From Mustelus asterias (taxonomy: Eukaryota), in the NCBI RefSeq assembly GCF_964213995.1, contig NW_027590219.1, positions 496,001-560,000 on the forward strand: DNA of 64,000 nt, written 5' to 3'. Shown piece by piece: positions 8,490-57,685 of the stretch (position 1 is the stretch's first letter; each line of letters begins with the position of its first letter). The notes under the pieces were generated by a model. The model was not told the DNA's origin. It was given only the letters and a program-made list of their open reading frames with translations, and did not search any database. Made by a program: the position numbers and the translations under genes.

Positions 8490-9480
8490 TGCCCGAGATC
8501 CGGCATCTGGCCGACACCGGGTGTTTATGAAGCCTCACCGCCCGGATCCATTTATGTTTCCGGTTTTCTATCGGGCTCTGGATCCGCGCCATTTAAAATT
8601 CCCATTGAAAACCCGCCGGCTCGAGCTCCTTCCCGCCTGCGGATCCACAAAGTGTTTCCAAATCCTCCCAGCCACCGCCTAACGCTGACTCCGCTTCTCC
8701 GGGACAAACAAGCGCCAAGGACAGCAATGACACTGCGCATGCTCCACATCACAATGACGGCAGCTCCGGACCAATAGGAAGAGGGGGCGGCGCTGGAGGA
8801 CCGAGCCGAGCGGCTGGTCCTCCAACCAATTGGAGTGAATGAGGGGCGGGATTGGAGGACCGAGCGTGAGCGGCTCGTCCTCCAACCAATCAGAATAAAT
8901 GAGGGGCGGAGCTGGAGGACTGAGCCGGAGCGGCTGATCCTCCAACCAATCGGAGTGAATGAGAGGCGGGTCCAGGCTGGGAGTGGAGCATGCGCAAAGA
9001 TGATCAGGCGTTGGGGAGCCTGGGAACGGACTGCGCAGGTGTGGTGTGCACAGGAAGAAGTCACAACACCAGGTGAAAGTCCAACATGTTTATTTGGAAT
9101 CAGGAGCTTTCGGAGCGCCGCCCCTTCATCAGGTGAGTCACCCAGTCCAACACCGGCATCTCCACATCAGGTGGTGTGGGTGTGCGCTCTGAGCATGCTC
9201 AGTGTCAGTCATGGTGTTGGGGAGGAGATTGTGAGCACAGGGTGGGAATGGAAACCACGGCTGCACTGGAAACAGCACCAACTTCTGGCCTAGGCCGCAG
9301 GCCCCGGCTTTACCACAGGGACAGCGCTGAAACCGGTGGCTGGACATTGAGGAGGATTTGGAAACACTTTGTGGATCCGCAAACCCTTCAGAATCATTGT
9401 CAGCTCCCTGGTTTGCAGCTGCGGGGCTTCTCCCTCCCTCCCTCCCGGGAACAGGCCCAGGTTAACGGCCCCATCCTGGC
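8490..9480. promoter_or_regulatory. CpG-rich putative bidirectional promoter 1 (between ZNF 5.5-6.2 kb minus and ZNF 11.1 kb plus)
   Basis: CpG enrichment; four CCAAT + GC-box units (8771, 8826, 8886, 8946); NRF1-like TGCGCATGC (8735) and GCATGCGCA (8988); YY1-like CGCCATTT (8587). Confidence 0.7.
9051..9168 (-). mobile_element. Penelope-type short element, family A, with minimal hammerhead (9100-9137)
   Basis: Minus strand reads tcac-CTGATGA-aggggcggcgctcc-GAA-AGCT-C. Shares the end ccagtccaac.ccggcatctccacatca with other copies. Approximate flanking duplication ggtgtg(g)gtgtgc. Confidence 0.7.
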
Positions 9481-9806
9481 TCAGCCACTGGAGGATGGTT
9501 CACATCAGAGGATGGGGGAGGGGGACAATAAATAAGAGGTTACACTTTGGCCTCAAATCAATGAGGACTCTGATCTCTGGGAAGGAAGGAAACCCTGGGA
9601 GGTGGGCGGGGAGGATTCACAAACACCCGCTGGAGGCCCCAACACCCCCAATAAGACCCATTGGTTTTATTGTCAGTCTGCAGACAGGAGCTGGAGAACT
9701 GAACCCAGACAGAGGAGAGGGAGGGAGAAAACTGGGAGTGGAGGAAAGAAAATTGTCTGTTCAGCGTTTCTATTGTGGATTGACAGCTGCTTTATAGATG
9801 CAAGAT

Positions 9807-10124
9807 GGGGCAGCACGGTGGCACAGTGATTAACACTGCTGCCTTACAGCGCCAGGGACCTGGGTTCAATTCTGCCCTTGGGTGACTGCCTGTGTGGAGT
9901 TTGCACATTCTCCCCGTGCCTGCGTGGGTTTCCTCTGGGTGCTCCGGTTTCCTCCCACAGTCCAAAGATGTGCAGGTTAGGTGGATTGGCCATGCTCAAT
10001 TGCCCCTTCGTGTCAGAGAGATTAACAAGGTAAATATTACGGGAATGGGTGGGATAGTTGTCGGTGCAGACTCGATGGGTTGAATGGCCTCCTCCTGTAC
10101 TTTGAGGATTCTCCGATTCTATGA
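9807..10124 (+). mobile_element. HE1-like SINE with CR1-type tail
   Basis: Same head and core, but ends gggttgaatggcctcctcctgtact..gattctatga, matching CR1 3' ends. Confidence 0.85.
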
Positions 10125-11014
10125 TGGATGTTTGAAAACTGCTTTTACACACGGTTACATGTTGACGATTTACACACAGAAAACTCAACCCCAAGAGAAA
10201 TGTTTGTCTCTCTGTGATTTCTATTCTGCATTGACTGTGATGATTTTTGTAAACAGAGATTACAACTTTCAGGAAAGGTTAAATGGACTGAAGTTTTTTC
10301 CTATCGAGCAGTGACCTGATAAAAGTCTTTCAAATTATTAGTGGCTTGGACAGGGGAAATGTGGAGAGAATGTTCCACTTGTGACAGAGTCTAAAAGAAG
10401 GAATGATCAATAAACGAAGAGTCATAAATACAAGATAGTTACCAATAAATCCAAGAAGCAATAAGGACAAATTTCTTCACTCACAGGTTTAGAATGACCA
10501 TAGAAATGAGTTGAGGAAAGTGCTGAGATTGTTTCAAAAGGAAATGGGAGAAACACACAAGAGAAAAAGAAATGGAAAAATCAACTGAAAGGCTGAGATG
10601 AGGTCTGTGGGACAGGAGAAGATGTGTCAAGTATAAAGAATTAAACTGAATGGCTTGTTTGTGTCTTGTGTATTCAAAGTAATTCAATGTAAACTCCTTT
10701 TCCAGAATATCTGCAGATGGGCGATTCAAACCAAAGGTCTCGGGATCTGACAGTGTCACATGATTCTTCAGGATCTGAATATCAAAGGCCTATGAATGTG
10801 GAATTATTCAACATCAGTGTGACTGGAAAAGCCCCGAGACACAGACATCTCAGTTATTTTTCCACAGTCAGCTGGAACAGAGCTTTAACCAGTCACACAG
10901 CGTGAAAAGAAATAGCACATTTACATCAGGTAGACACCGTACTCGTGTTCTTTGTGTGGACCTGATTTCAACTGATTATATAACCTGGAGAGACAGGAGG
11001 ACACCTGCACCATG

Positions 11015-11139
11015 TGAACAAGGAGCAGCAATACGCCATTCGGCCCCACGGGCCAGTTCCGCCATTTAATAACATCATGGCTGATCTGATAGTGAGCTCA
11101 AATCTGCATCCCGCCTACACCCGATAGCCTGTCAATAAT
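11015..11139 (-). mobile_element. CR1 3'-tail insertion at the ZNF start codon
   Basis: ccattcggccc..catcatggctgatctga tail flanked by catg at 11011-11014 and 11140-11143. Confidence 0.7.
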
Positions 11140-11140
11140 C

Positions 11141-17869: not shown

Positions 17870-18460
17870 TAAGATTGAAATGGTGACATAGGTTGCAGTT
17901 CAGACAAGGTCCACTACGATAATTCCTGGCATAAAGAAGTTTGTTTATTAAGGAAAGGTTAACAGGGTGCGTCGATACTCATTGGATTTTAGATAAATGA
18001 GAGGAGATCTAACTGAAGCACATATGATTCTGAGGGTACTTGACAGGGTAAGTGCTGTTTCCCCATATCAGGGAATCAAAAATTGCAGGGACAGTTTAAA
18101 AAAAGGGACAGAGATGAGGAGCAATTGCATCTCTCAGAGGGCCAGTAGCCCGTGGAGTTCTCTCCCCCAGTGGGCAGTGGAGATTGGTCATTGGGTATAT
18201 TCAAGGCTGTGTTCGCACCGGGAGTTTCACCTCCAAGGGAGTTAAGGGTGAGAGAGGCTGGAGGAAAACTGAGTTATGACAATGAACAGATGGGCTCTGA
18301 CGAAGGGTCATCCAGATTTGAAACTTCAGCTCTATTCTCTCTCCACAGATGCTGTCACACCTGAGATTTTCCAGCATTTTCTTGATCAGATGAGCCATGA
18401 GTTTATTGAATCGCAGAGCAACCTTGATGGGTCGAATGGCCTCCTCATGCTCCTAATTCT
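17870..18460 (+). mobile_element. Degraded CR1 3' fragment with a nested family-B Penelope hammerhead piece (18292-18382)
   Basis: MRGDLTEAHMILRVLDRV; gggct-CTGACGA-agggtcatccagattt-GAAAC..agctct. Confidence 0.65.
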
Positions 18461-19005: not shown

Positions 19006-19186
19006 ACCTCAAACAGTGAATATAAAATAACATTGTTAGGTATTGAGATAAATTAATTTTAAAAAAACGCAAATTATTGCGAATTGATGATCTGCTATGT
19101 TAAATTACTCAAATTCTCCTGTGGGAAGCTTTTACACTGTCTCTTTCCCTTTCCCTGATGGTGCTGACTCTGTCTGGATTCAATCG

Positions 19187-19333
19187 CAGTAAGAAGTCTC
19201 ACAACACCAGGTTAAAGTCCAACAGGTTTATTTGGTAGCAAATTGCTACCAAATAAACCTGTTGGACTTTAACCTGGTGTTGTGAGACTTCTTACTGTGC
19301 TTACCCCAGTCCAACGCCGGCATCGCCACATCA
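19187..19333. mobile_element. Penelope-type family A fold-back element (~55-bp arms) with 14-bp TSD
   Basis: cagtaagaag...tggtagcaa followed by its reverse complement. TSD tggattca(a/g)tcgca at 19175-19188 and 19334-19347. Confidence 0.8.
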
Positions 19334-19507
19334 TGGATTCAGTCGCACAGTCACTGGTTCCTCTCGTTCTGTCTCATCCTGATTCTGAATATTCATTGTT
19401 TTACAGAATGATACAGATGGATGGAAACCATTCAGCTCAGTATGCCTGTGCTGGCCTTTGGAAGATCTATCCAATAAATTCCACAGCCCTGTTGGCAAAG
19501 TCAGAAC

Positions 19508-28805: not shown

Positions 28806-29599
28806 AGTGCCAGTGTCCTTGTGTCTCTCCAGGTTGGATGATCAGTTGAAGTCTTGTCCACACACACAACATATGTACAGTTTCTCCCAGCTGTGAATGG
28901 TGTGATGTTTTTTCAGGCTGTGTAACTGGTTTAAGCTTTTTCCAGTCAGTTCACTGGAACACTCTCACTTGGGTGTGTGTGTCTCAGTGCTTTTCCAGTT
29001 ACACTGATGTTTGAAATCTCCTCCTCCAGGCAGAACAGACAAACATTTCTCCTTCCACGTTCAAAGTCTCAGGATATTCAGGTCCAAATAAGTCGATACT
29101 CAATCTGATTTTTATGTGATGTTTCCTCACCTCACCTGTAAAAGGAGTTAACAAAAATTGTCACGGTCAATCGAGATAGAAATTCAGTCCAAAGATGTGC
29201 GGGTTAGGTTGATTGGCCATGCTAAAAAGAAAATTGCCTCTCTTGTTCCCCCAAATCAGTAAATCCCTGTACCACACACTCTCCCTCCTCCCTGGGCTGA
29301 AATCCAAACCCATCTCACCATTTCTTTCCTCCACTCCCAGTTTTCTCCCTCCCTCTCCTCTGTCTGGGTTCAGTTCTCCAGCTCCTGTCTGCAGACTGAC
29401 AATAAAACCAATGGCTCTTATTGGGGGTGTTGGGGCCTCCAGCGGGTGTTTGTGAATCCTCCCCGCCCACCTCCCAGGGTTTCCTTCCTTCCCAGAGATC
29501 AGAGTCCTCATTGATTTGAGGCCAAAGTGTAACCTCTTATTTATTGTCCCCCTCCCCCATCCTCTGATGTGAACCATCCTCCAGTGGCTGAGCCAGGAT

Positions 29600-30345
29600 G
29601 GGGCCGTTAACCTGGGCCTGTTCCCGGGAGGGAGGGAGGGAGAAGCCCCGCAGCTGCAAACCAGGGAGCTGACAATGATTCTGAAGGGTTTGCGGATCCA
29701 CAAAGTGTTTCCAAATCCTCCCAGCCACCGCCTAACGCTGACTCCGCTTCTCCGGGACAAACAAGCGCCAAGGACAGCAATGACACTGCGCATGCTCCAC
29801 ATCACAATGCCCGGGCACTGATTGACGGCCGCTCCGGACCAATAGGAATAGGGGGCGGGCTGGAGGACCGAGCGGGAGCGGCTGGTCCTCCATCCAATCG
29901 GACTGAATGAGGGGCGGGGCTGAGGTGTCCCCATAGAACGCACGGGAAGGGGTTCGCATGCGCAGTAATGTTACAGTCTGGAGCATGCGCAGTAAGCAAC
30001 GGCGTTTGCAGCACGCAGTGTGGGTGATCGCAATCGGAGAGAAGTTCCTCTGTCTCATCAGCAGCCGGTAAGGATGCGGAAACGTAGAGGGAGCAATGGA
30101 ACCGGCGGATGGACGTCGAGGGTTTCTAAATACCTGGTCAAAGCCTCAAATCTCGAAAATGAGCCCGTCGGTCTGTGTTTGCAGCTTCCGGTCTTTTTCC
30201 CGAGACGAGACTCAGGTTAACGGCCGCCATCTTGATTCAGCAGGGAGGAGAGCGCATGTTCTCGGTGACGCAACATCGAGTGGGCGGGGCTTCATGTTTC
30301 TGCTTCCCCTCCAGGTCCTAGCTCCCGGTCCTATAGCACAATGAG
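29600..30345. promoter_or_regulatory. CpG-rich putative bidirectional promoter 3
   Basis: CCAAT (29839, 29893), GC boxes, two GCATGCGCAGTAA motifs (29956, 29983), YY1 GGCCGCCATCTT (30222). Confidence 0.7.
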
Positions 30346-30519: not shown

Positions 30520-31560
30520 AGAAACATACATAGAAAATAGAAGCTGGGAGTCGGCCGTTCGGCCCTTCGAGCGTGCGCCGCCATTCATTATTGTCATGGC
30601 TGATTATCAAATTCAATACCCTGATCCCTGTCGCCCCAAGAGATTTATCTAATTGAAATCAGACTCTACTTCCACTTTTGAAGAACGTGAATCCAAAGAT
30701 TCATGACCCTCTGAGAGAAAAACATCTCATCTCTGTTTTCAATGGGCAATGCTGTTTTTTAAAACAGCGACTCCCTAGATTCTCCCCTGAGAGTAAACAT
30801 CCTCTCCAGATCCAAAACAGAAAATGCTGGAAAGTCTCAGCAGGTCAGGCAGCACCTTTTCTCCCCCTTTGCTTCGCCTTTCCCCCTTTTTCTCAATTTT
30901 TCCTCCCTCCAATCCACCCCCCCCCAACATCTTCATCCATCACAACTTCTTCAGCTTCTCTGCTGTTTGGCCATTCACACTTCTATACTCTCTATGGACT
31001 GCCATTAGCATCCTTTCCCCTGGTTCCTGTGGCTTGGACCCATCTTTCATTCCCTCACAGTGTAAATATCTCCCACTTTCTATGCCTTTTTTATGCTTTG
31101 ACAAAAGGTCACCTGGACTCGAAGCTTCAGCTCTTTTCTCTCCTCACAGATGCTGCCAGACCTCCTGAGATTTTCCAGCATTTTCTCTTTTGGTTTCAGA
31201 TTCCAGCATCCGCAGTAATTTGCTTTAACCTTTCTCTCCATATTCACCCTGTCAAGAGTTTTCAGAATCTTGAAGGTTTAAATTAAGTTGCCTCTTACTC
31301 TTTTGAAGTCGAGCAGAAGCTAAACTCGAGCAGAGACTGTCTCACTGCTCCTCATCGGACAATCCACCCATTTCCAGGTATTAATCTACTAAACCTACTA
31401 TGAACTGCTTCTCATAAAGCAGTTAAAGAATAATATGCACTCATATTTTTCCTTAAATAAGGAAACCGATAATGTACACACTGCTCCAGATATGTCTAAC
31501 CAATGCCCTGTGCAACTGAAACATAACTTCCCTGCTTTTACTCAATTCCCCTCATAATAA
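30520..31560 (-). mobile_element. Old CR1 fragment with a nested Penelope family-B element (30812-31227)
   Basis: CR1 tail at 30520. The nested piece has inverted ends (aaaatgctggaaa.tctcag / ctgagattttccagcatttt) and a decayed hammerhead at 31095-31134. Confidence 0.6.
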
Positions 31561-34687: not shown

Positions 34688-37600
34688 CTATCTATAGCCC
34701 TCAATCCCATTAAATCCCATGTACTCATCCAGAAGTCTCTTAAAAGACCCCAACGAGTTTGCCTCCACCACCACCGACGTCAGCCGATTCCACTCACCCA
34801 CCACCCTCTGAGTGAAAAACTTACCCCTGACATCTCCTCTGTACCTACCCCCCAGCACCTTAAACCTGTGTCCTCTCGTAGCAACCATTTCAGCCCTTGG
34901 AAATAGCCTCTGGGAGTCTACCCTATCCAGACCTCTCAACATCTTGTAAACCTCTATCAGGTCACCTCTCATCCTTCGTCTCTCCAGGGAGAAGAGACCA
35001 AGCTCCCTCAACCTATCCTCATAAGGCATGCCCCCCAATCCAGGCAACATCCTTGTAAATCTCCTCTGCACCCTTTCAATGGCTTCAACATCTTTCCTGT
35101 AATGAGGTGACCAGAACTGCGCGCAGTACTCCAAGTGGGGTCTAACCAGGGTCCTATAAAGCTGCAGCATTATCTCCCGACTCCTAAACTCAATCCCTCG
35201 ATTAATGAAGGCCAGTACGCCGTACGCCTTCTTGACCGCATCCTCCACTTGCGAGGCCGATTTAAGAGTCCTATGGACCCGGACCCCAAGGTCCTTCTGA
35301 TCCTCTACACTGCTAAGAATGGTACCCTTCATATTATACTGCTGCTTCATCCCATTGGATCTGCCAAAATGGATCACCACACACTTATCCGGGTTGAAGT
35401 CCATCTGCCACTTCTCCGCCCAGTCTTGCATTCTATCTATGTCTCGCTGCAACTTCTGACATCCCTCCAAACTATCCACAACACCACCTACCTTGGTGTC
35501 GTCAGCAAACTTACCAACCCATCCCTCCACTTCCTCATCCAGGTCATTTATGAAAATGACAAACAGCAAGGGTCCCAGAACAGATCCCTGGGGCACTCCA
35601 CTGGTCACTGACCTCCATGCAGAGAAAGACCCCTCCACAGCCACTCTCTGCCTTCTGCAGGCAAGCCAGTTCTGGATCCACAAGGCAACAGCCCCTTGGA
35701 TCCCATGCCCTCTCACTTTCTCAAGAAGTCTTGCATGGGGGACCTTATCGAACGCCTTGCTGAAGTCCATATAGACCACATCCACCGCTCTTCCTTCGTC
35801 AATGTGTTTGGTCACATTTTCAAAGAACTCAACCAGGCTTGTAAGGCACGACCTGCCCTTGACAAAGCCGTGCTGACTACTTTTGATCATACTAAACTTC
35901 TCTAGATGATCATAAATCCTGTCTCTCAGGATCCTCTCCATCAACTTACCAACCACTGAGGTTAGACTCACCGGTCGGTAATTTCCCGGGCTGTCCCTGT
36001 TCCCTTTCTTGAATATAGGGACCACATCTGCAATCCTCCAATCCTCCGGAACCTCTCCCGTCTCCATCGACGATGCAAAGATCATCGCCAAAGGCTCCGC
36101 AATCTCCTCCCTCGCCTCCCACAGTAACCTGGGGTACATCCCATCCGGTCCCAGCGACTTACCAACCTTGATGCCATTCAATAGTTCCAACACATCCTCT
36201 TTCTTTATGTCCACATGCTCGATCCTTTCTGTCCACCGCAAACCAGCAGTACAACCACCCAGATCCCTTTCCACCGTGAATACCGAGGTAAAGTATTCAT
36301 TAAGCAGCTCCGCCATTTCTAACGGTTCCGCACAAACTTTTCCCCCTTCACCTTTTAAGGGTCCTATGCCTTCACATCTCATCCTTTTACTCTTGACATA
36401 TTTGTAGAAAGCCTTGGGATTCTCCTTAATCTTACCCGCCAAGGCCTTCTCATGACCCCTTCTCGCTCTCCTAATTTCCTTCTTAAGCTCCTTCCTACAT
36501 CCCGTATACTCCTCTAAATCCTTAATACCTCCTAGCTCTCTGAACCTTCTGTACGCCTCTCTTTTCTTATTCACCAGGTTCATCACAACCTTCGTGCACC
36601 ACGGTTCCCGTACCCTACCAACACCCCCCTGTCTCATCGGAACGTTGTCATGCAGAGCTCCAGACAAACATTCCTTGAAAATCCTCCACTTTCCTTCGGT
36701 ACTTTTCCCCAAGAATGCCTCCTTCCAATTTACCCGTCTAATTTCCTCCCTGATGACACTGTATTTCCCTTTACTCCAGAGAAACACTTTCCTAGCCTGC
36801 CTGATCCTATCTCTTTCCAATGCTATCGTGAAGGAGATAGAATTATGATCGCTATCCCCAAGATGCTCACCCACTGAGAGATCCTCCACCTGTCCAGGTT
36901 CATTAGCCAGCACCAGATCAAGTACAGCCTCTTCTCTAGTAGGCTTATCCACATACTGTGTCAGGAAACTCTCCTGGACACACCTAACAAACTCCTCTCC
37001 ATCCAAACCCCTAGCCCTAGGGATATTCCAATCTATGTTTGGGAAATTAAAATCTCCCATCACGACAACTCTGTTATTCCTACATCTCTCCAGGATCTGT
37101 TTCCCCATCTGCTCCTCAACATCTCTGTTACTATTGGGCGGCCTATAGAAAACACCCAGCAACGTTACCGACCCCTTCCTGTTCCTCACCTCCACCCACA
37201 GAGACTCCGTAGTCAATCCCTCCACGGCGTCCACCTTCTCTACAGCCGTGACACTATCCCTGATCAACAGTGCCACTCCCCCCCCTCTCTTGCCTCCCTC
37301 CCTGTCCTTCCTGAAACATCTAAAACCCGGCACCTGAAGCACCCAGTCCTGTCCCTGAGACATCCAAGTCTCCGTAATGGCCACCACATCACAATTCGAA
37401 GCAGCAATCCACGCTCTAAGCTCATCCACTTTATTCACTACACTCCTGGCATTAAAATAGACACATCTCAGACCTTCAGCCTGAGCACTTCCCTTCTCCA
37501 TCACTCGTCTAACCTCCCTCTTACCCTGTTTACATTCCTTATCTATTTGCGAGCTAACCTCCTCGCTCTCAGTCCCCTCATTTCGATTCCCTCCCCCCAA
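34688..37600 (-). CDS. LINE ORF2: APE endonuclease plus reverse transcriptase
   Basis: YFNARS, AITETW, YRPP, GDFN, SDH (APE); NYRPVSL, QHGF, DFSKAFD, GVPQGSVLGP, FADD (RT). The track start is TTG, the first ATG is at 37501, and the frame is open up to 37630. Confidence 0.95.
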   Translation of the reverse strand: MGGGNRNEGTESEEVSSQIDKECKQGKREVRRVMEKGSAQAEGLRCVYFNARSVVNKVDELRAWIAASNCDVVAITETWMSQGQDWVLQVPGFRCFRKDREGGKRGGGVALLIRDSVTAVEKVDAVEGLTTESLWVEVRNRKGSVTLLGVFYRPPNSNRDVEEQMGKQILERCRNNRVVVMGDFNFPNIDWNIPRARGLDGEEFVRCVQESFLTQYVDKPTREEAVLDLVLANEPGQVEDLSVGEHLGDSDHNSISFTIALERDRIRQARKVFLWSKGKYSVIREEIRRVNWKEAFLGKSTEGKWRIFKECLSGALHDNVPMRQGGVGRVREPWCTKVVMNLVNKKREAYRRFRELGGIKDLEEYTGCRKELKKEIRRARRGHEKALAGKIKENPKAFYKYVKSKRMRCEGIGPLKGEGGKVCAEPLEMAELLNEYFTSVFTVERDLGGCTAGLRWTERIEHVDIKKEDVLELLNGIKVGKSLGPDGMYPRLLWEAREEIAEPLAMIFASSMETGEVPEDWRIADVVPIFKKGNRDSPGNYRPVSLTSVVGKLMERILRDRIYDHLEKFSMIKSSQHGFVKGRSCLTSLVEFFENVTKHIDEGRAVDVVYMDFSKAFDKVPHARLLEKVRGHGIQGAVALWIQNWLACRRQRVAVEGSFSAWRSVTSGVPQGSVLGPLLFVIFINDLDEEVEGWVGKFADDTKVGGVVDSLEGCQKLQRDIDRMQDWAEKWQMDFNPDKCVVIHFGRSNGMKQQYNMKGTILSSVEDQKDLGVRVHRTLKSASQVEDAVKKAYGVLAFINRGIEFRSREIMLQLYRTLVRPHLEYCAQFWSPHYRKDVEAIERVQRRFTRMLPGLGGMPYEDRLRELGLFSLERRRMRGDLIEVYKMLRGLDRVDSQRLFPRAEMVATRGHRFKVLGGRYRGDVRGKFFTQRVVGEWNRLTSVVVEANSLGSFKRLLDEYMGFNGIEGYR

Positions 37601-37605
37601 CCTTT

Positions 37606-38523
37606 CTAGTTTAAAGTCTCTCCAGTAGCCTTAGCCAACCTTCCCGCCAGGATATTGGTCCCCCTGGGATTCAAGTGCCACCCGTCTTTTTTAAACAGGT
37701 CACACCTGCCCCTAAAGAGGTCCCAATGATCCAAGTACCCAAATCCTTGTCCCTTGCTCCAGTCCCTCAGCCACGCATTCATTCTCCACCGATTCCTGTT
37801 CTCACTCTCCCGCGGCACAGGCAGCAATCCCGAGATTACTACCTTTGCATTCCTCTTTCTCAGCTGTCTACCTAACTCCCTATATTCTCTTTTCATGACC
37901 CCTTCCCTCTTCCTACCTATGTCAGCAGTACCTATATGCATCACGACCTTCGGCTCCTCTCCCTCCCCCTTCAGGATTTCTGGGACTCGACCAGAGACAT
38001 CCCGGACCCCTGCACCAGGGAGGCAAACCACCATCCGAGAGTCCCGTCTGTGTCCGCAAAAACGCCTATCTGACCCCCTCACCGTCGAGTCCCCAATTAG
38101 CACTACCCTCCTTTCCTTACCCTTTTGCACTACTGGGCCAGGCTCAGCTCCAGAGACACTGCCACCGCTGCTTCCCCCAGGTGGGCTGTCCACCCCATTA
38201 GTACTCAGACAGGAGTACTTATTATTAAGGGGCACATCCACCGGGGTGCTCACCATCAACTGAGCTTTCTCCTTCCTCACTGTTACCCAGTTACCCTCCT
38301 CCCGTGGTCCCGGTGTGACCACCTGCCGATAGCTCCTGTCAATGACCTCCTCACTATCCCTAACCCGGCGAAGGTCCTCGAGCTGCAATTCCAGTTCCCT
38401 AACATGTTCCCTTAGGAACCGCAGCTCAACACACCCAGCACAGATATGGTCGTCCGGGAGGCTAGGAGCCTCCAGGACCTCCCACATCCTACATTGGAAA
38501 CAACATACTGGCCTCACACTCAT
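37606..38523 (-). CDS. LINE ORF1: zinc-finger/leucine-zipper plus SGNH esterase-like domain
   Basis: CxxC..CxxC, a heptad region (VRELELQLEDL), and LIGDS, PGA, HIGTAD and DGWHLN SGNH blocks. First ATG at 38523. Confidence 0.88.
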   Translation of the reverse strand: MSVRPVCCFQCRMWEVLEAPSLPDDHICAGCVELRFLREHVRELELQLEDLRRVRDSEEVIDRSYRQVVTPGPREEGNWVTVRKEKAQLMVSTPVDVPLNNKYSCLSTNGVDSPPGGSSGGSVSGAEPGPVVQKGKERRVVLIGDSTVRGSDRRFCGHRRDSRMVVCLPGAGVRDVSGRVPEILKGEGEEPKVVMHIGTADIGRKREGVMKREYRELGRQLRKRNAKVVISGLLPVPRESENRNRWRMNAWLRDWSKGQGFGYLDHWDLFRGRCDLFKKDGWHLNPRGTNILAGRLAKATGETLN

Positions 38524-38704
38524 AATTGCCCCTTTAAACACACAGGGAAAAAAAAGTGAATGAAAATTTTAAACTTACCTTTCCTCCTCCTGTTTTCTCC
38601 AAAGCCCTGCTCTCACTGGGTCTTTTTTTTAGGTTAGAGGAGGAGGGAGGGTGGGATACTCTACAAGTGTAGAGTATCGGGATTCCTCTCTGTTCCAATT
38701 TATT

Positions 38705-39670
38705 GGGGAAAAAAAATCTCTCTCTCCCAGACCTCCCTGCGCGACCACTTCCGGGTTTAGATATTTTTAAAGAAAAAACCCGTGAAAAAGTAAGTTAAAA
38801 ATAACAGCGCTTACCCGCAGCACTCCTCTCGCGAATCTCTCCCTCTCTGCTGCACTTCCAAGACGCAATGAGGCCGATTCACTGAGGTGAGTAACTTTTT
38901 TTAAAAAAAAAAAATCTCTCTCCCAGACCTCCCTGCGCGACCACTTCCGGGTTTAGATATTTTTAAAGAAAAAACCCGCGAAAAAGTAAGTTAAAAATAA
39001 CAGCGCTTACCCGCAGCACTCCTCTCGCGAATCTCTCCCTCTCTGCTGCACTTCCAAGACGCAATGAGGCCGATTCACTGAGGTGAGTAACTTTTTTAAA
39101 AAAAAATCTCTCTCTCCCAGACCTCCCTGCGCGACCACTTCCGGGTTTAGATATTTTTAAAGAAAAAACCCGCGAAAAAGTAAGTTAAAAATAACAGCGC
39201 TTACCCGCAGCACTCCTCTCGCGAATCTCTCCCTCTCTGCTGCACTTCCAAGACGCAATGAGGCCGATTCACTGAGGTGAGTAACTTTTTTTTAAAAAAA
39301 TCTCTCTCTCCCAGACCTCCCTGCGCGACCACTTCCGGGTTTAGATATTTTTAAAGAAAAAACCCGCGAAAAAGTAAGTTAAAAATAACAGCGCTTACCC
39401 GCAGCACTCCTCTCGCGAATCTCTCCCTCTCTGCTGCACTTCCAAGACGCAATGAGGCCGATTCACTGAGGTGAGTAACTTTTAAAAAAAAAAAATCTCT
39501 CTCTCCCAGACCTCCCTGCGCGACCACTTCCGGGTTTAGATATTTTTTAAGAAAAAACCCGCGAAAAAGTAAGTTAAAAATAACAGCGCTTACCCGCAGC
39601 ACTCCTCTCGCGAATCTCTCCCTCTCTGCTGCACTTCCAAGACGCAATGAGGCTGCACTTCCAAGACGCA
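38705..39670 (-). repeat. ~195-bp tandem monomers (about 4.8 copies) in the LINE 5' UTR
   Basis: cccagacctccctgcgcg recurs at ~38726, 38922, 39116, 39309 and 39505. CpG-rich, each with CCGGAAGT on the minus strand. Confidence 0.92.
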
Positions 39671-40960: not shown

Positions 40961-41596
40961 GTGTGTGATTTTATAATTCATTCAGGATTTATTTCAAAAA
41001 AACTAAGAATAAAGTAACAGGAGATATTTTGAGGCATCTGAGAGTCTGTGTGTGTGTGAGGGTGTCTGTGTAAGGGTGTCTGTGAGTGTGTGTGTAAGGG
41101 TGTCTGTGAGTGTGTGTGTTACTTCTCATTGGTTTCACACCAACCTTCCTCTTTCTGAGCAGACATTCTGGCCCCTGATAAACCCATTGAGTGATTTGAA
41201 TGGTACAATTCAGAGATTCTTCATCCAGGCTGAAACCACAGGCTGACTGTGTGCTGTGTAAAACCTGACATCTACACAACCTAATCCCACTTCTCCTGGA
41301 ACAACGTGAAGTGACTACAATTTTCCAGATTGATTTCTTTGCTCTCAATATTCTTTCAGATAGTTCATAAATTCCATGAGTACGTTATCCTTTAACACAC
41401 CTGTGGTGTCCAGTTTAAATACTTTCCTCAGTCTGACCAACATATAGCAATGGGATTGTTGTTATTACAGGAATCCATTCTGTAAATCTGATTCCAAGGC
41501 ACTCTGGAGTAATGCAGTGATCCACACCTCCCCACTCAACACCAATCTATAGTTCCATCTGAGTTCCAGATTTTAACATGATTTTTCAAAACACAG

Positions 41597-41995
41597 GCAG
41601 CAGGGTGGCACAGTGATCAGCAGCGCCAGGGACCTGAGTTCAATCCTGGGCTCAGGTAGTACGAGTGAGCTTACATTAACACTGCAATGAAGTTACTATG
41701 AAAATCCCCTAGTCGCCACACTCGACGCCTGTTTGGGTGTACTGAAGGAGAATTTAGCACGGCCAATGCACCGAACCAGCATGTCTTTCAGACTGTGGGA
41801 GGAAACCTGAGCACCCGGAGGAAACTCATGCAGATACGGAGAGAACGTGCAAACTCCACACAGTCACCCAAGACCGGAATTGAACCGGATCCCTGGCACT
41901 CTGAGGTAGCAGTGCTAACCACCGTGCCACAGCTCTCTGTGTGGAGTTTGCACGTTCTCCCTGTGTCTGCATAGGTTTGCTCAGAGTGCTCCACT
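41597..41995. mobile_element. HE1-like SINE (41668-41929, minus) nested within plus-strand SINE pieces
   Basis: Head at 41597-41655 and core at 41934-41995 flank an inverted copy. Confidence 0.65.
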
Positions 41996-41999
41996 TTTT

Positions 42000-42310
42000 G
42001 GAAGGAGTAATTTGACAAGGAAAAATTCAATGAACGGCATGACACTAGTAAGCTCTGTGGAACAAAGGGACCAGGGTGTGATTGTCCATAGATCTCTGAG
42101 GACAGAAGTGTATGTTAGTAGGCTGGTGAAAAAGGCATGTAGGACACTTGCCTTTATCAATTGAGGTATAGATTACAAAAGCAAGGAAGTCATGTTGGAG
42201 TTGCATAGAACTGTGGTGAGGTCACTGCTGGAATACTGTGTGCAGTTCTGGTCGCCACATTATAAGAAGGATGTGATTGCATTGGAGGGGGTGCAGAGGA
42301 GATTTACCAG
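42000..42310 (+). mobile_element. CR1 RT C-terminal fragment
   Basis: LLEYCVQFWSPHYKKDVIALEGVQRRFT. Confidence 0.75.
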
Positions 42311-42837
42311 TGAAGGTGAGTTACAGATGAGAGGGACAGTGTCAAAAGAGAGAACCATTGACAATATTAGATAATGTGGGGAAGTTGGGTTATCAGTGGT
42401 TTAGAGGGTAAAGGGAGATGAAGGGAGGTCTCATGGACAAGATGAGCAGTGAGAGGGTTTGATGGGAGATAGCAGAAGAATTGGAGAAAGATGTGAGTTC
42501 AGTACTTGGAAAAAGGGAAATTTCAGAGAGAGTTTTGTCTGGTGGTCCAGTGGAAGGGAGGGAGGCAGCAGATCAGATTGTCTCAATCTTAGAGACAAAG
42601 AAGCTCCACGAGCTCCTCACACTTGTTGTTGAAGATGAGGACGGAGGAGACGGGAGAGAGGCCCTTCAAAAGGAGAACCATTCACAGATTTTTTAAAAAG
42701 ACAACAGACAATACATTAACACAAAGACGGTGTATTTGAATGTTGTCCAGAATATTCGCCTCTATAACTGGCCTGAAGTTTATTAACATCAGCAGGTGCA
42801 GACCACAGTGTGATTGACAACAACATCCAATCTCCAG

Positions 42838-43707
42838 TTATTTATGAACTTGCTGGTGTCTCAGCAATGCGGATGACTGAGTGAATCTCTTCCCACACTT
42901 GGCGCAGGTGAATGGTCTCTCCCCGGTGTGAACCCGCTGATGTACAGTGAGATGAGATGATCGCCTGAACCCAGTCCCACAGTGAGAGCATCTGAATGGT
43001 TTCTCGCCAGTGTGAACTTGTTGATGGGACACCAGTTCCTGCGAGGTTTTAAAACATTTCCCACACTTCAGACACTTAAACGGTCTCTCATCAGTGTGGC
43101 CTCTTTGGTGTGTAATTAGGATGGATGAATTAACAAATCCCTTCCCACACTGGGAGCAGGTGAATGGTCTCTGCCTCGTGTGAACTTGCTGGTGTGTCAG
43201 CAGGGTGGATTTGTGAGTGAATCCCTTTCCACACTCAGAGCAGGTGAATCGCTTCTCCCCGGTGTGAACTCGCTGGTGTGTCAGCAGCGTGGATGACTGA
43301 GTGAATCCCATCCCACACACAGAGCAGGTGAATGGTCTCTCCCCAGTGTGAATTAGTTTGTGTTTAATCAGGGTGGATGACTGAGTGAATCCCTTCCCAC
43401 ACAAAGAGCAGGTGAATGGCCTCTGCCCAGTGTGTGTGCGCTGGTGATTTTGCAGGGTGGATAACTTAGTGAATCCCTTCCCGCAGTCCGAGCAGGTGAA
43501 CGGCCTCTCCCCGGTGTGACCACGCCGATGGGTTTCCAGCTGGGATGGGTAATTGAATCCCTTCCCACAGACCCCACATTTCCACGGCTTCTCCCCATCA
43601 TGACTGCATTTATGTTTGAACAGGCCAGATGATTGGTTGAAGTCTTGTCCACAAACGGAACACGAGTATGGTTTCTCCCCACTGTGAACGGTGCTTTTTC
43701 CTTCCAT
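42838..43707 (-). CDS. C2H2 zinc-finger protein, 10 fingers ([13 protein letters not shown] subfamily)
   Basis: Intact ORF, first ATG at 43707. Polypyrimidine acceptor upstream at ~43815. Confidence 0.9.
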
Positions 43708-48371: not shown

Positions 48372-50715
48372 ATCAGATAGGAGGAGGTTGGTGTCAGTGG
48401 CTGGGGTTTATATCAGACAGGAGGAGATTGGTGTCAGTGTGGGGTTTTGTATCAGACAGGAGGAGGTTGGTGTCAGTGACTGTGGGGTTTATATCATGAT
48501 GTGGAGATGCCGGCGTTGGACTGGGGTAAGCATAGTAAGAAGTCTCACAACACCAAGTTAAAGTGACTGTGGGGTTTATATCACAGTAAGAAGTTTAACA
48601 ACACCAGGTTAAAGTCCAACAGGTTTATTTGGTAGCAAAAACCACACGGGTTTATATCAGACAGGAGGAGATTGGTGTCAGTGTGGGGTTTATATCAGAC
48701 AGGAGGAGATTGGTGTCAGTGTGGGGTTTATATCAGACAGGAGGAGATTGGTGTCAGTGTGGGGTTTATATCAGACAGGAGGAGATTGGTGTCAGTGTGG
48801 GGTTTATATCAGGCAGGAGGAGATTGGTGTCAGTGTGGGGTTTATATCAGACAGAAGGAGATTGGTGTCAGTGACTGTGGGGTTTATATCAGACAGGAGG
48901 AGATTGGTGTCAGTGTGGGGTTTATATCAGACAGGAGGAGATTGGTGTCAGTGTGGGGTTTATATCAGACAGGAGGAGATTGGTGTCAGTGTGGGGGTTT
49001 ATATCAGACAGGAGGAGATTGGTGTCAGTGTGGGGTTTATATCAGACAGGAGGAGATTGGTGTCAGTGTGGGGTTTATATCAGACAGGAGGAGATTGGTG
49101 TCAGTGTGGGGTTTATATCAGACAGGAGGAGATTGGTGTCAGTGTGGGGTTTATATCAGACAGGAGGAGATTGGTGTCAGTGTGGGGTTTATATCAGACA
49201 GGAGGAGATTGGTGGCAGTGTGGGGTTTATATCAGACAGGAGGAGATTGGTGTCAGTGTGGGGTTTATATCAGACAGGAGGAGATTGGTGTCAGTGTGGG
49301 GTTTATATCAGACAGAAGGAGATTGGTGTCAGTGTGGGGTTTATATCAGACAGGAGGAGATTGGTGTCAGTGTGGGGTTTATATCAGACAGGAGGAGATT
49401 GGTGTCAGTGTGGGGTTTATATCAGACAGGAGGAGATTGGTGTCAGTGTGGGGTTTATATCAGACAGGAGGAGATTGGTGTCAGTGTGGGGTTTATATCA
49501 GACAGGAGGAGATTGGTGTCAGTGTGGGGTTTATATCAGACAGGAGGAGATTGGTGTCAGTGTGGGGTTTATATCAGACAGGAGGAGATTGGTGTCAGTG
49601 TGGGGTTTATATCAGACAGGAGGAGATTGGTGTCAGTGTGGGGTTTATATCAGACAGGAGGAGATTGGTGTCAGTGTGGGGTTTATATCAGACAGGAGGA
49701 GATTGGTGTCAGTGTGGGGTTTATATCAGACAGAAGGAGATTGGTGTCAGTGTGGGGTTTATATCAGACAGGAGGAGATTGGTGTCAGTGTGGGGTTTAT
49801 ATCAGACAGGAGGAGATTGGTGTCAGTGTGGGGTTTATATCAGACAGGAGGAGATTGGTGTCAGTGTGGGGTTTATATCAGACAGGAGGAGATTGGTGTC
49901 AGTGTGGGGTTTATATCAGACAGGAGGAGATTGGTGTCAGTGTGGGGTTTATATCAGACAGGAGGAGATTGGTGTCAGTGTGGGGTTTATATCAGACAGG
50001 AGGAGATTGGTGTCAGTGTGGGGTTTATATCAGACAGGAGGAGATTGGTGTCAGTGTGGGGTTTATATCAGACAGAAGGAGATTGGTGTCAGTGTGGGGT
50101 TTATATCAGACAGAAGGAGATTGGTGTCAGTGTGGGGTTTATATCAGACAGGAGGAGATTGGTGTCAGTGTGGGGTTTATATCAGACAGGAGGAGATTGG
50201 TGTCAGTGTGGGGTTTATATCAGACAGGAGGAGATTGGTGTCAGTGTGGGGTTTATATCAGACAGGAGGAGATTGGTGTCAGTGACTGTGGGGTTTATAT
50301 CAGACAGGAGGAGATTGGTGTCAGTGTGGGGTTTATATCAGACAGGAGGTGATTGGTGTCGGTGTGGGGTTTATATCAGACAGGAGGAGATTGGTGTCAG
50401 TGTGGGGTTTATATCAGACAGGAGGAGATTGGTGTCAGTGTGGGGTTTATATCAGACAGGAGGAGATTGGTGTCAGTGTGGGGTTTATATCAGACAGGAG
50501 GAGATTGGTGTCAGTGTGGGGTTTATATCAGACAGGAGGAGATTGGTGTCAGTGTGGGGTTTATATCAGACAGGAGGAGATTGGTGTCAGTGTGGGGTTT
50601 ATATCAGACAGGAGGAGATTGGTGTCAGTGACTGTGGGGTTTATATCAGACAGGAGGAGATTGGTGTCAGTGTGGGGTTTATATCAGACAGGAGGAGATT
50701 GGTATCAGTGACTGT
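48372..50715 (+). repeat. 38-bp minisatellite (~54 homogeneous copies from 48647, plus degenerate edge units)
   Basis: Unit gtggggtttatatcagacaggaggagattggtgtcagt, with occasional +4 (gact) and agaagg variants. Confidence 0.97.
48497..48646. mobile_element. Two Penelope family-A end fragments inserted in the satellite edge
   Basis: tgatgtggagatgccggcgttggactgggg...cacaacacca and cagtaagaag...tggtagcaaa, separated by a duplicated tgactgtggggtttatatca. Confidence 0.7.
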
Positions 50716-54238: not shown

Positions 54239-54394
54239 ATGTTAATCATCCGAAGAACTGAGCTGGAGTTTAAGATTCTGAATACAGGTGAAATAAATTA
54301 GCTCAGTATTAAACACCCGGTGTGTTGCGTATTTGTTAAGAGACTAACTGAAATCCTGTTCTCCACTGTTCCATTTCTGGGTCTTCTCTCAGTT

Positions 54395-54785
54395 GAAGGA
54401 ACATTTATATTTGTGTTGAGCCTTTCCTGACATCAGGTTGTTCCAAAGCTTTTCTGGCCAATCAGACAGTGTTGGAAATGCAGCAGCTCATTTGCGCAGC
54501 AAGATCCCATAGAAAATAATCCAGATAATGTATTTGAGTGATCTTGATTGAGGGATAAAGGTTGATCAAGACTCTGGGGAGAAATCCCCTGCTCTTTGAA
54601 AGAGCATCAATGGATCTCTTATGCCTGACTGTTCAGTCTCACTTGGAACACAGGACCTCTGACAGTGCGGGGCTCCCTCAGTACTGCAGTGGAATGTCAG
54701 CCTGGAATTTCTGTTCACTTCTCTGGATTTGAAAACACAGCCTCCTGACTCAGATATGAGAAAGCAACCACTGAGACAAGACTAA
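54395..54785 (-). mobile_element. DeuSINE-like (SacSINE1/AmnSINE-type) element
   Basis: Minus strand has a tRNA-like head, then aggctgacattccactgcagtactgagggag..gcactgtcagagg (resembles the Deu domain as recalled) and an L2-like tail. Confidence 0.55.
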
Positions 54786-54965
54786 CACCTCATCATTACT
54801 GTGGATTATTTCAGTTTTCAAACCTCTGGTTACCCTCATGGACAAGTCCCAGCTGCCCATTCCTTCAAGTGTGTCTCTCTTAGCCTGGATATCCTGAGGA
54901 GGTGTCGGTAACACAGCCATGTAGCTGTCCTCAGTGTTTAATGGGACAGTGTGGACACAAATCCA

Positions 54966-55177
54966 CAGGAAGTAGTCTCACAACACCAGGTTAAAATCCA
55001 ACAGGTTTATTTGGTAGCACGAGCTTTCAGAGCGCCGCTCCTTCATCAGGTGAGTGCGTTATGAAGGAGCAGCGCTCCAAAAGCTCATGCTACCAAATAA
55101 ACCCATTGGACTTTAACCTGGTGTTGTGAGACTACTTACTGTGCTTACCCCAGTCCAACACCAGCAACTCCACATCA
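54966..55177. mobile_element. Penelope family-A fold-back element with hammerhead on the minus arm and a partial one on the plus arm
   Basis: Arms of ~85 bp; minus tcac-CTGATGA-aggagcggcgctct-GAA-AGCT-C-gtg. Flanking duplication cacaaatccacagg at 54956 and 55176. Confidence 0.8.
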
Positions 55178-56064
55178 CAAATCCACAGGGACAGTGAGAG
55201 TCCAATTCAATGTTGTACAATCTGTTCAATATTTCATCCTTGGCTCTGAGTCTTTTGGTGATGATTTAAATCTGATGTCTGTTAGTTGCTGACTCATCGA
55301 CTTGGGAAATAGTTTTTTCTCATTTGCCTGATAAAATTTTGAACCCATCCCCAGATTTTCAATCAGTTCTCGTGAAAAGAGCCCCAGTTTCTAGAATCTT
55401 TTCTGATAACTAAAGCCTCTATTCCCTGTGATTGTCTCAGTGAATCTCTTCTGCACGCCATGATTTTGAATGTTTCTATCAAATCTCCTCTCAGTCTTTT
55501 CTCCAAGTGAAAGAGTCCCAAATTCTCCAATCTGTCTTCATCACTGAAGTTTCTCATTCCTGGAATCATTCTCCTAAATCTGATTTTCCACCCTTTGTTT
55601 TCTATTTCCATGTGGAGAGAATTGCTACAAGAACTGGAAAAACTCAGCGTGTCTGCCCATATTTATCAAGAGAGAAAGCAGAGTTAAGGTTTCAGGTCCT
55701 TTGACTTTTCGTCACAGTTGAAGAATTACTGCCCGATTTCACTCTGAGCTCCAATCTTTCACACAATGTTCCCTTGTTCTTGATTCCCCACCAGAGGAAA
55801 TCATTTTTCCATATTTACCCAATTGAAAGGATCAACTGATTTTGGTCAGTTCCCTTTAATCTAGATCAGCACAAATTTCCCTTTTACATTCCAGGACCTG
55901 CAGCATTTCAGGAATGGTTTATAACAAGAAATTCACAATTTCCTATCCCATGAAGAAAAGGTTATGGTTATAACTTAATCCTGGATTGGTGCTGAATCTG
56001 GACATGTAAAGCCAGGTTAAAGTTTAAAGTTGAGATCATTTTTTTAAAGGTGAGATGATGTACT

Positions 56065-57165
56065 AGCGGACTCAAGAACAGCTTCTTCCCTGTTTGCGGA
56101 CAACACAAAATTGGCAGGACTTGCAGATAGTGAGGAGCATTGTCAGAAGCTACAGAAGGATATAGATGGGCTGGAAATTTGGGCAAAGAAATGGCAGATG
56201 GAGTTCAATCCTGATGAATGCGAAGTGATGCATTTTGGTAGAAATAATGTAGGGAGGAGCTATACGATAAATGGCAGAACCATAAAGGGTGTAGATACGC
56301 AGAGGGACCTGGGTGTGCAAGTCCACAGATCCTTGAAGGTGACGTCACAGGTGGAGAAGGTGGTCAAGAAGGCATATGGCATGCTTGCCTTTATAGGACG
56401 GGGCATAGAGTATAAAAGTTGGGGTCTGATGTTGCAGATGTATAGAACGTTGGTTCGGCCGCATTTGGAATATGCGTCCAGTTCTGGTCGCCACACTACC
56501 AGAAGGAGGTGGAGGCTTTGGAGAGAGTACAGAGGAGGTTTACCAGGATGTTGCCTGGTATGGAGGGGCTTAGTTATGAGGAGAGATTGGGTAAACTGGG
56601 GTTGTTCTCCCTGGAAAGACGGAGGATGAGGGGAGACTTTATAGAGGTGTATAAGATTATGAAAGGCATAGATAGGGTGAACGGTGGGAAGCTTTTCCCC
56701 AGGTCGGTGGTGACATTCATGAGGAGTCATAGGTTCAAGGTGAAAGGGGGGAGGTTTAACACAGATATCAGACGGACATATTTTACACAGAGGGTGGTGG
56801 GGGCCTGGAATGCGCTGCCAGGCAAGGTGGTGGAGGCGGACACACTGGGAACATTTAAGACTTATCTAGATAGCCATATGAACGGAGTGGGAATGGAGGG
56901 ATACAAAAGAATGGTCTAGTTTGGACCAGGGAGCAGCGCGGGCTTGGAGGGCCGAAGGGCCTGTTCCTGTGCTGTATTGTTCTTTGCCACCATCAGACTT
57001 TTGAATGCAGATCTTTCTCTCGACCCTATCTGTAAGTGCAACATTATATTCTGCAGCCTTTCCTTCTCCGCTATGTACTCTATGAACAGTATTTATTTTC
57101 TTGCACGCTGTTCAGACACAATACTTTCACTGTATCCCAATAAATGTGACAATAAATCAAATCAA
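56065..57165 (+). mobile_element. Young CR1 fragment (56090-56985) nested in the 3' end of a Rex/Babar- or L2-like LINE
   Basis: The host motif KNSFFP|ATIRLLN is split by the CR1. Host tail tgtgacaataaatcaaatc also occurs at 52370. Confidence 0.75.
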
Positions 57166-57267
57166 AACAGAGAATTGTTACAATGATTAACCCGGAAGAA
57201 TTGAAGACACAGAGGATAAGATAAACTTTGAAAGATTGAATATTCGAAGGTAAAGTAAAAGTATTTT

Positions 57268-57557
57268 TTTTATTAGTCACAAGTGGGCTTACTTTAACAC
57301 TGCAATGAAATTACTGTTAAAATCCCCTAGTCACCACACTCCGGCACCTGTTCGGGTACACTGAGGGAGAATTTAGCATGGCCAATGCACCTAACCAGCA
57401 TGTCTTTTGGACAGTGGGAAGAAACCGGAGCACCTGGAGAAAACCTACACAGACCCGGGGAGAAGATGCAGACTCTGCATAGAAAGTAACCCAAGCCGGA
57501 AATTGAACCTGGGTCCCTGGTGCTGTGAGGCACCAGTGCTAACCACCGTGCCGCCCC
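57268..57557 (-). mobile_element. HE1-like SINE
   Basis: Reverse complement of the family consensus. Confidence 0.85.
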
Positions 57558-57599
57558 TGGTGGAGGGATGTGGGGAACAGGCACTTATGATATAAAAAT

Positions 57600-57685
57600 A
57601 GTAAGAAGTCTCACAACACCAGGTTAGAGTCCAACAGGTTTATCTGGAACCATGAGCTTTCGAGCGCTGCTGCTTCATCAGGTGA
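57600..57685 (-). mobile_element. Penelope family-A fragment with hammerhead core
   Basis: Minus tcac-CTGATGA-agcagcagcgctc-GAA-AGCT-C. Flanked by tgatat(a/g)aaaata. Confidence 0.7.

Follow-up and report, generated by a model that had tools for sequence, protein, structure and literature searches.

Five short insertions in a contig of Mustelus asterias are very probably truncated 3' ends of an abundant Penelope-like retroelement

The window, the whole stretch of 64,000 nucleotides of contig NW_027590219.1 of Mustelus asterias which was analysed, contains five sites (1 to 5, at 9051, 19187, 48497, 54964 and 57600) with short insertions, together consisting of nine arms of one repeat (Table 1). 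The five sites described in the initial annotation are real, and a BLAST search of the window with all five gave no further copy. The insertions measured about 85-214 bp, close to the 85-210 bp given earlier. Each bears all, part or none of a small self-cutting RNA motif of a Penelope-like element (PLE). The five sites are very probably cut-short 3' ends of a very abundant Penelope-like retroelement rather than mobile elements of a novel kind; the repeat family is ordinary and its anatomy has already been published. The literature searched, with most subscription papers as well as Repbase and Dfam outside its coverage, held no description of this particular family, so it may well be catalogued.

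Table 1 Features of the five insertion sites (positions are those of the window)
Feature	Position	Strand	Remarks
Site 1, left target duplication, imperfect	9038-9049	+	right copy 9173-9185, one indel; weak; ungapped score 8, p 0.02
Site 1, inverted arm, tail-less	9050-9139	-	from internal start through hammerhead
Site 1, minimal hammerhead core	9104-9132	-	stem II 5 bp with one G-U pair; first stem I pair broken
Site 1, sense arm	9140-9169	+	30 nt, tail only
Site 2, left target duplication	19175-19188	+	right copy 19334-19347, 13/14 alike
Site 2, inverted arm, tail-less	19187-19240	-	54/54 identical to right arm; stops before hammerhead
Site 2, sense arm	19244-19333	+	with 34-nt tail, 19300-19333
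Site 3, first target copy, 21 bp	48476-48496	+	again at 48563-48583; last 12 bp also at 48648-48659
Site 3, arm a, tail-bearing, 66 nt	48497-48562	-	tail 48497-48530
Site 3, arm b, tail-less	48584-48645	-	orientation as arm a
Site 4, left target duplication	54956-54969	+	right copy 55176-55189, 14/14
Site 4, inverted arm, tail-less	54964-55056	-	runs through hammerhead
Site 4, best-kept minimal hammerhead	55021-55049	-	stem I 3 bp, extra A, stem II 5 bp (G10.1-U11.1 wobble), palindromic AGCU
Site 4, sense arm	55061-55177	+	begins inside hammerhead core (dead); AATAAA; 34-nt tail 55144-55177
Site 5, left target duplication	57588-57600	+	right copy 57683-57695, 12/13
Site 5, single arm, tail-less	57601-57682	-	decayed hammerhead core 57654-57681

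All arms begin at either of two points, with 34 nt between them. The five arms without the tail all start within 3 nt of one point, the internal start, and the four arms with it all end at one point 34 nt from there; the tail is 34 nt long and, as had been stated, is found at four of the five sites. Loose ends in the contigs of sequencing run X4 piled up at both boundaries (151 and 177 at 55140/55142, 277 at 55177). An inverted 5'-truncated copy adjoins the 5' end at sites 1, 2 and 4 (3/5). The fold-backs claimed at all five sites were true at 19187, a perfect stem of 54 bp with a 3-nt loop, and at 54964, an imperfect hairpin of 180 nt. The other three sites are not fold-backs: 9051 holds an inverted arm and the tail only, which do not overlap, 48497 has two arms on the same strand with nested duplications, and 57600 is one arm alone. 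A direct head-to-tail pair (partial tandem, direct pLTRs) was not found in the window, the two arms of site 3 being split by target DNA; one tail-to-internal joint was present in single contigs of runs X17 and X4.

Within a PLE origin, the hairpins could also have come from snap-back self-priming of one cDNA (or on an antisense template) followed by nuclease resolution, which is considered unlikely. The perfect hairpin of site 2 would suit such a course, as would published proposals of self-priming for PLE palindromic junctions and of EN-mediated resolution for the tail, but the left arm of site 4 has sequence missing from the right arm, the left arm of site 1 is without any counterpart, lone tail-less arms occur at 3b and 5, and in vitro both strands were extended from both start sites. 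Since the tail-less arms at sites 1, 3b and 5 lack a hairpin partner, the internal start needs no fold-back.

Flanking duplications, previously given as 12-20 bp, were present at 12-21 bp and were weak at 9051. When compared with 20,000 random non-array junction pairs, five of the six junction pairs were at p ≤ 0.0025: 19175/19334 (14 bp, one mismatch, p 0.001), 54956/55176 (14 bp exact, p 0.00025), 57588/57683 (13 bp, one mismatch, p 0.002) and the two pairs of site 3. The latter lie inside an array, within a 38-bp minisatellite; the exact 21 bp at 48476/48563 was matched by 0/20,000 non-array pairs (p 0.02 against all pairs) and the 12 bp at 48572/48648 had p 0.0007 against non-array pairs and p 0.05 against all pairs. 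At 9051 the best ungapped match reached no more than 8 bp (p 0.02); with one indel allowed, 12/13 bp matched by eye. An empty paralogous site was present in the window for site 3, the target 21-mer of which is uninterrupted at 48871, 50282 and 50628 within the minisatellite, and none was found there for sites 1, 2, 4 and 5. Microhomology of at least 2 nt between target and RNA was observed at eight of the nine priming junctions; most junctions share 2-7 nt and several of the targets are not AT-rich.

The CTGATGA-(stem II)-GAAAGCTC core of the hammerhead occurs at exactly three places in the window, as many as in the initial annotation, all on the minus strand (9104-9132, 55021-55049 and 57654-57681), and both stem I and stem II are kept only in the copy at 55021-55049, the predicted cut of which lies between 55021 and 55020. 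In the 57654 core stem II is broken and stem I has the same mismatch as at 9104. A relaxed core with a stem II of at least 4 bp was found four times in the window (two of these from a second family), compared with a mean of 0.18 per shuffle in 100 shuffles. The motif has the traits of PLE minimal hammerheads: the core CUGANGA / GAAA / UH, an unpaired base between 9 and 10.1, G10.1-C11.1, palindromic 15.2-16.2 and no helix III. At position 17 the window has C and the read consensus A or U, and G was never present among the rows listed. Covariation in stems I and II had been proposed earlier as a check and was not seen; none of eight stem pairs was changed on both sides, including among the four arms spanning stem II, and two were changed on one side (G-U), a comparison with very low power as 3-4 arms cover the stems. 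At gathering level, Rfam gave no hammerhead match in the window (0 hits). With E ≤ 10 on 54900-55250, eight hits far below gathering scores were obtained, mostly to microRNA hairpin models and none to the hammerhead, and these were rejected as generic hairpin matches. Minimum-energy dimers from ViennaRNA did not adopt the hammerhead fold, which has little bearing on activity. The core is complete in three arms, and one more arm runs across the cut site. The hammerhead appears to be a passenger of the pLTR, mostly decayed in the window copies.

Raw reads (X21) were from a relative (organism B), other than the species of the window. Of 13,065,944 reads, 104,122 (about 0.8 %) aligned to the family region, with a depth of about 41,000-43,000 in the arms versus 16-63 in flanks free of other repeats. 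Beyond 55056, 7,660 X21 reads continued with a common consensus (30 letters, agreement 0.55), and contigs in all three other runs also extended past this point. The largest true fold-back joints in X21 had 108 and 102 reads, and no junction was above about 1 % of arm depth among the 15 joints listed of 559; the same 15 included no orthologous empty-site joint for site 4. A joint of 313 reads, 55018-55088, was taken to be an alignment switch between the two arms and was excluded from the fold-back comparison. A few arms end at the predicted cleavage site. After the tail, longer copies have a low-agreement consensus starting TG(G/A)CTA (0.36-0.42, among the 24 loose-end rows listed of 1,595). 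This short consensus would supply a candidate ATG at the tail end. Between the hammerhead and the tail, all three sense frames were closed when read by eye.

It is extremely improbable that the insertions are a MITE or foldback DNA transposon with the arms as terminal inverted repeats, and this reading is largely refuted. Two sites are hairpins between direct repeats, as it would have them; however, only two of the five are true inverted-arm hairpins, the tail makes the ends asymmetric, the duplications vary in length from 12 to 21 bp, no two sites agree in length and centre, and the fold-back junctions are scattered, none of those listed being dominant. A short non-autonomous master RNA (a solo pLTR, SINE- or retrozyme-like), moved in trans by PLE protein with the same insertion chemistry, is very unlikely as the template. 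All nine arms are of 116 nt or less, three of them terminate (9139, 55056 and 57682) no more than about 6 nt apart, immediately 5' of the hammerhead core, solo pLTRs are able to act in trans, and animal retrozymes are pLTR-derived and present in a chondrichthyan, all of which would agree with such a master. Against it, the family runs on past 55056 in the X21 reads and in the contigs, and the window is without the tandem hammerhead-bearing units that are the defining form of non-LTR retrozymes. The share of reads touching the family, the shared continuation past the hammerhead and the lack of a dominant fold-back junction therefore point to independent truncated insertions and not to the MITE or retrozyme option of the initial annotation.

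The autonomous partner with GIY-YIG and RT, which the initial annotation had expected, was not found in the window ORFs or contig collections. Pfam searches of 242 window ORFs (≥62 aa; a set without those lying for the most part in zinc-finger, LINE and array blocks) gave no RT and no GIY-YIG, only three zinc-finger hits and one sub-threshold hit. A 27-letter motif was absent from the metagenome, viral and genome contigs, and no contig carrying the full element was found in four collection scans. A 20-letter tail motif matched four metagenome loci over 19-22 bases only and was dismissed as chance. Since the RT/GIY-YIG ORF was not found, membership of the PLEs is supported on the basis of anatomy. 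Features published for PLEs are seen in the pair of starts separated by 34 nt, in the tail-less inverted arm, in the target-site duplications (TSDs) and in the minimal hammerhead, which has a base unpaired before its stem II; this agreement supports the truncation-product option put forward earlier. Very probably, each site arose on its own as a dead-on-arrival insertion of the pLTR, the 3' end of an endonuclease-bearing Penelope-like retrotransposon with a high copy number, and a two-nick priming mechanism is likely.

In the proposed mechanism the GIY-YIG nuclease would nick both target strands, 12-21 nt apart judging from the TSDs; nicking of both strands has been shown in vitro for the Poseidon element of Anolis (Frangieh et al. 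2024, PMC11167929). Either freed 3' end could then prime reverse transcription on the element RNA, at the tail end or 34 nt inside, apparently aided by pairing of 1-7 nt. The fixed starts are seen in the window, and two RT start sites were shown in vitro for Poseidon. Synthesis would halt early, after 30-116 nt, and the ends would be joined, the junctions now showing either 0-4 additional bases or microhomology of 2-3 nt. Priming from both nicks would give either a fold-back, head to head and bearing the tail on only one of its sides (sites 2 and 4), or an arm plus the tail (site 1), priming from one nick a single arm (site 5), and two primings from the same nick may account for site 3.

It is possible, though doubtful, that the family also preserves a genomic record of two steps which were unseen in the only in vitro PLE study, namely the use of cleaved RNA as template in vivo and pairing-guided priming at both start sites. 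The former is suggested because arm b of site 3 has its end precisely at the cleavage site predicted for a subfamily seen in run X3, and the strongest joint listed for X17, a run that may be of RNA, connects the end of the tail directly with the base that follows the cut; the latter because eight of nine junctions share at least 2 nt. The literature searched, which left out most subscription papers, gave no account of PLE insertions ending at the hammerhead cut. The value of the family lies in its being material for questions of PLE mechanism. In very short and very numerous insertions a single read spans the joining point along with the two priming junctions. Such insertions could therefore decide by what route inverted PLE copies arise and whether template RNA is cut by the hammerhead in vivo.

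The units of EN+ PLEs (Penelope/Poseidon, Neptune) have an inverted 5'-truncated copy, a tail of 30-40 bp and a TSD (Craig et al. 2021, PMC8557442; Arkhipova et al. 2013, PMC3846280), and published PLE tails of 30-40 bp lie between two RT start sites (Craig et al. 2021; Frangieh et al. 2024). In Adineta, an inverted pLTR is accompanied by a 31-bp tail and a TSD of 8-10 bp (Craig et al. 2021; Arkhipova et al. 2013). The window copies resemble these units in the inverted tail-less copy on the 5' side, the tail at one end (34 nt), the TSDs, the strong 5' truncation and the pLTR hammerhead, but have no ORF in any copy and TSDs of 12-21 bp, longer than those of Adineta. The Poseidon element PAc of Anolis carolinensis (PMC11167929) likewise has two fixed RT start sites which bound the tail downstream of the hammerhead; both target strands were extended and uncleaved RNA was copied through the hammerhead, which some of the window arms also cross. 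The PAc ORF starts at stem II, whereas the family in the window has closed frames from hammerhead to tail and a candidate ATG at the tail end. Priming of PAc was described as non-homologous, at AT-rich DNA, while most window junctions share a few nucleotides. Of metazoan PLE minimal hammerheads (Cervera and de la Pena 2014, PMC4209133; see also Lunse et al.), the CUGAUGA core, the extra base before stem II, G10.1-C11.1, the palindromic 15.2-16.2 without helix III, several sequence variants per genome and mostly dispersed single motifs with some close opposite-strand pairs are features shared with the present family. Here stem I is of 3 bp, or of 4 in certain variants, and stem II is of 5 bp, compared with 4-5 and 7-8 bp in Schistosoma (PMC4209133). 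Non-LTR retrozymes (Li, Clavereau and Pollet, bioRxiv 10.64898/2026.07.22.740005) are also non-coding and pLTR-derived with a type I hammerhead, but form tandem arrays with a hammerhead in each unit, whereas the copies in the window are dispersed, variably truncated and partly inverted single insertions, in which five of the nine arms lack hammerhead sequence.

When the five short insertions proposed in the initial annotation (sites 1 to 5) were compared with the window by BLAST, exactly these five sites and none further were returned. Put in one orientation and aligned, they correspond to nine arms of one unit, which on the sense strand runs from a minimal hammerhead through AATAAA and approximately 45 nt to a 34-nt tail with terminal CACATCA. 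Four arms (sites 1, 2, 3a and 4) end at the tail end, in agreement with the proposed tail at four of the five sites, and five (sites 1, 2, 3b, 4 and 5) begin at most 3 nt from a point 34 nt inside the tail end, the internal start. The far end is unlike in all nine arms, which are 30-116 nt long. The proposed fold-back structure was found at sites 2 and 4, but not at site 1 (one inverted arm and nothing else but the tail), site 3 (two arms pointing the same way, both behind the same target base) or site 5 (one arm only). The site 2 hairpin has a folding energy of -97.5 kcal/mol as RNA and, if transcribed, would be a double-stranded RNA substrate.

Coordinates of the repeat arms and neighbouring features
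Feature	Position	Strand	Remarks
Site 1	9051		centre 9126-9152
Site 2	19187-19297		perfect 54-bp hairpin, 3-nt loop
Tail, first part (site 2 sense arm)	19288-19312		pyrimidine-rich
Site 3, arm 3a	48497-48562	-	tail-bearing
Site 3, arm 3b	48584-48645	-	tail-less
Site 4	54964		imperfect hairpin, 180 nt
Site 5	57600		
Second family	2230-2458, 18294-18382, 30809-31229		
Second family, hammerhead-like cores	2361, 18297	+	stem II 5 bp, stem I absent
Second family, inverted arms	2230, 30809		
Second family, flanking repeat	2220/2455		9 bp
Complementary pair	9351-9751, 29321-29721		401 nt each, 100 % complementary, 19.6 kb apart
LINE	34688-38568	-	980-aa and 320-aa ORFs, both open
194-bp tandem array	38709-39653		adjoins LINE; ~5 copies, 98 % alike
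Zinc-finger ORF	11096		

The flanking target duplications (TSDs) noted initially were significant at five of the six junction pairs (p ≤ 0.0025 against random non-array pairs), but weak at site 1 (p 0.02 in the same comparison). The duplications of site 3 (21 and 12 bp) lie within a 38-bp minisatellite, in which the 21-mer is present uninterrupted at three other places, and they are weaker once array pairs are counted (p 0.02 and 0.05).

Sequences of four of the 24 listed runs were aligned to 54500-55700, the region of site 4. In X21, raw whole-genome reads of a relative, organism B, 104,122 of 13,065,944 reads aligned, a small share of which belongs to two other repeats inside the region. Depth was approximately 43,000 and 41,000 on the arms of site 4, 38,600 on the tail and 16-63 in flanks without other repeats, which means about one locus in every 25-38 kb in organism B, the same order as five in 64 kb in the window. 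The tail depth, slightly below half of the summed arm depth, is that expected if about half of the arms bear the tail. Beyond the hammerhead end, 7,660 X21 reads continued with a common consensus (agreement 0.55), and the family is thus longer than any copy in the window. Among the 15 of 559 joint rows from which joint figures come, the largest true fold-back joints had 108 and 102 reads, so no hairpin form is dominant. At 54656-54686, 699 X21 reads jump back 31 bases; this is a piece of a short tandem repeat unrelated to the family.

The 22,102 reads behind the tail were mostly heterogeneous (agreement 0.37), and in each of the four runs the sequence there opened with TG(G/A)CTA. This would supply an ATG at the tail end and may be an ORF start or a trace of priming preference. 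The first part of the tail, with CAG at its end shortly before the candidate ATG, resembles a 3' splice site; introns in Penelope-like elements (PLEs) are described in PMC4209133.

A strict core search confirmed three hammerhead copies, all on the minus strand. Like the PLE minimal hammerheads as characterized in PMC4209133, the core has an unpaired base 5' of stem II, G10.1-C11.1, a palindromic 15.2-16.2 (AGCU) and no helix III. Rfam models gave no match to it in the window or the site 4 stretch. Only at 55021-55049 are both stems intact, stem I with 3 bp and stem II with 5 bp, of which one is a wobble. Covariation, which the initial annotation had made a check, was not demonstrated, since none of eight pairs had two-sided changes and two had one-sided changes to G-U among the 3-4 arms spanning the stems. 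In the loose-end read consensus (three rows, by eye), stem II was unchanged, the loops varied and position 17 was A or U, a picture that fits a functional ancestor. PLE hammerheads are cited in PMC6466107 as cleaving as dimers.

It appears unlikely that hammerhead-cleaved RNA was copied in vivo. With a single mismatch, arm 3b matches the subfamily that run X3 has behind 55019, and it ends at the last base before the cut predicted for this subfamily; one arm of eight ending there has a chance expectation of 8-34 %. The top joint shown for X17, a run that is RNA only by guess, runs straight from the tail end into the base immediately after the cut (one contig, depth 1,790), and may be a single locus in one abundant contig; the joint was found in one contig of X4, in no X21 reads and not in X3. 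That uncleaved RNA was copied follows from three arms with the full core and a fourth spanning the cut; this counts against a cleaved template, as does the finding in PMC11167929 that no RNA-seq ends lay at the cut. A literature search found no paper on PLE insertions ending at the hammerhead cut.

Insertion would involve nicking of the target, priming and joining. Counted by eye, target and template overlap by 2, 2 (7 allowing a 2-nt slip), 2, 5 and 1 nt where priming was at the internal start. For the tail-end junctions the counts are 2, 3, 2-3 and 2 nt, and two of these four rely on the consensus of the reads behind the tail. Overlap was at least 2 nt at eight of nine priming junctions (binomial probability ~3e-6 with equal base frequencies), a count that is small, post hoc and dependent on the imperfect TSDs of sites 1, 2 and 5. 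The hairpins could also originate by snap-back self-priming, with which site 2 is as compatible as with priming at two nicks. The tail-less arms without partner at sites 1, 3b and 5, and the additional sequence in the left arm of site 4, argue for two-nick priming over snap-back.

The window, from what we take to be a cartilaginous fish, is made up of a C2H2 zinc-finger ORF cluster, LINE pieces, presumably CR1-type, and tandem arrays; the remaining short repeats are presumably SINEs. Within 8700-9200, site 1 is directly behind a CpG-rich stretch (CpG o/e 0.76 vs 0.37 in the whole window) with five CCAAT and two GCATGCGC words, approximately 2 kb upstream of the zinc-finger ORF at 11096, and may be in the 5' region of that gene. 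Contigs of organism A (depth 79) and organism B (depth 48) contain a joint, 55053-55149, that is one base off the site 1 centre; this suggests an old insertion at site 1, or one that was copied along with zinc-finger gene units. The complementary pair is due either to an inverted duplication or conversion that took place very recently between such units or to an assembly effect. Together, the LINE and the adjoining array have the look of a young, full-length element whose 5' end bears tandem repeats. The second, unrelated family of the same build, with an apparent tail on one side, is probably another PLE family.

For the five-site family, the analysis establishes two fixed starts, far ends that vary, TSDs, a high copy number and a longer parent, and these favour the initially proposed PLE truncation. 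The elements behave like PLE ends and very probably are such ends; an ORF with the defining RT/GIY-YIG domains was not found among 242 window ORFs outside the zinc-finger, LINE and array blocks (Pfam) or by motif search of contig collections. The retrozyme or MITE option received no support: by the definition in bioRxiv 10.64898/2026.07.22.740005, retrozymes consist of tandemly arrayed units that each contain a hammerhead, unlike the window elements, and there is no dominant hairpin form. PLEs are reported in PMC4350176 from every vertebrate genome covered there, including that of the elephant shark. Their insertions are described as 5'-truncated, frequently accompanied by a truncated copy in inverted orientation next to them and by a tail of 30-40 bp on one end (PMC8557442), and with the same build, a 31-bp tail and TSDs of 8-10 bp (PMC3846280). 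The in vitro experiments of PMC11167929 describe Poseidon protein cutting and extending both target strands, with reverse transcription of uncleaved RNA beginning at two sites bounding the tail; priming was reported as non-homologous there, whereas the window junctions show target-template overlap. The window sites have the pattern described in these three accounts of PLE insertion in its shortest form.
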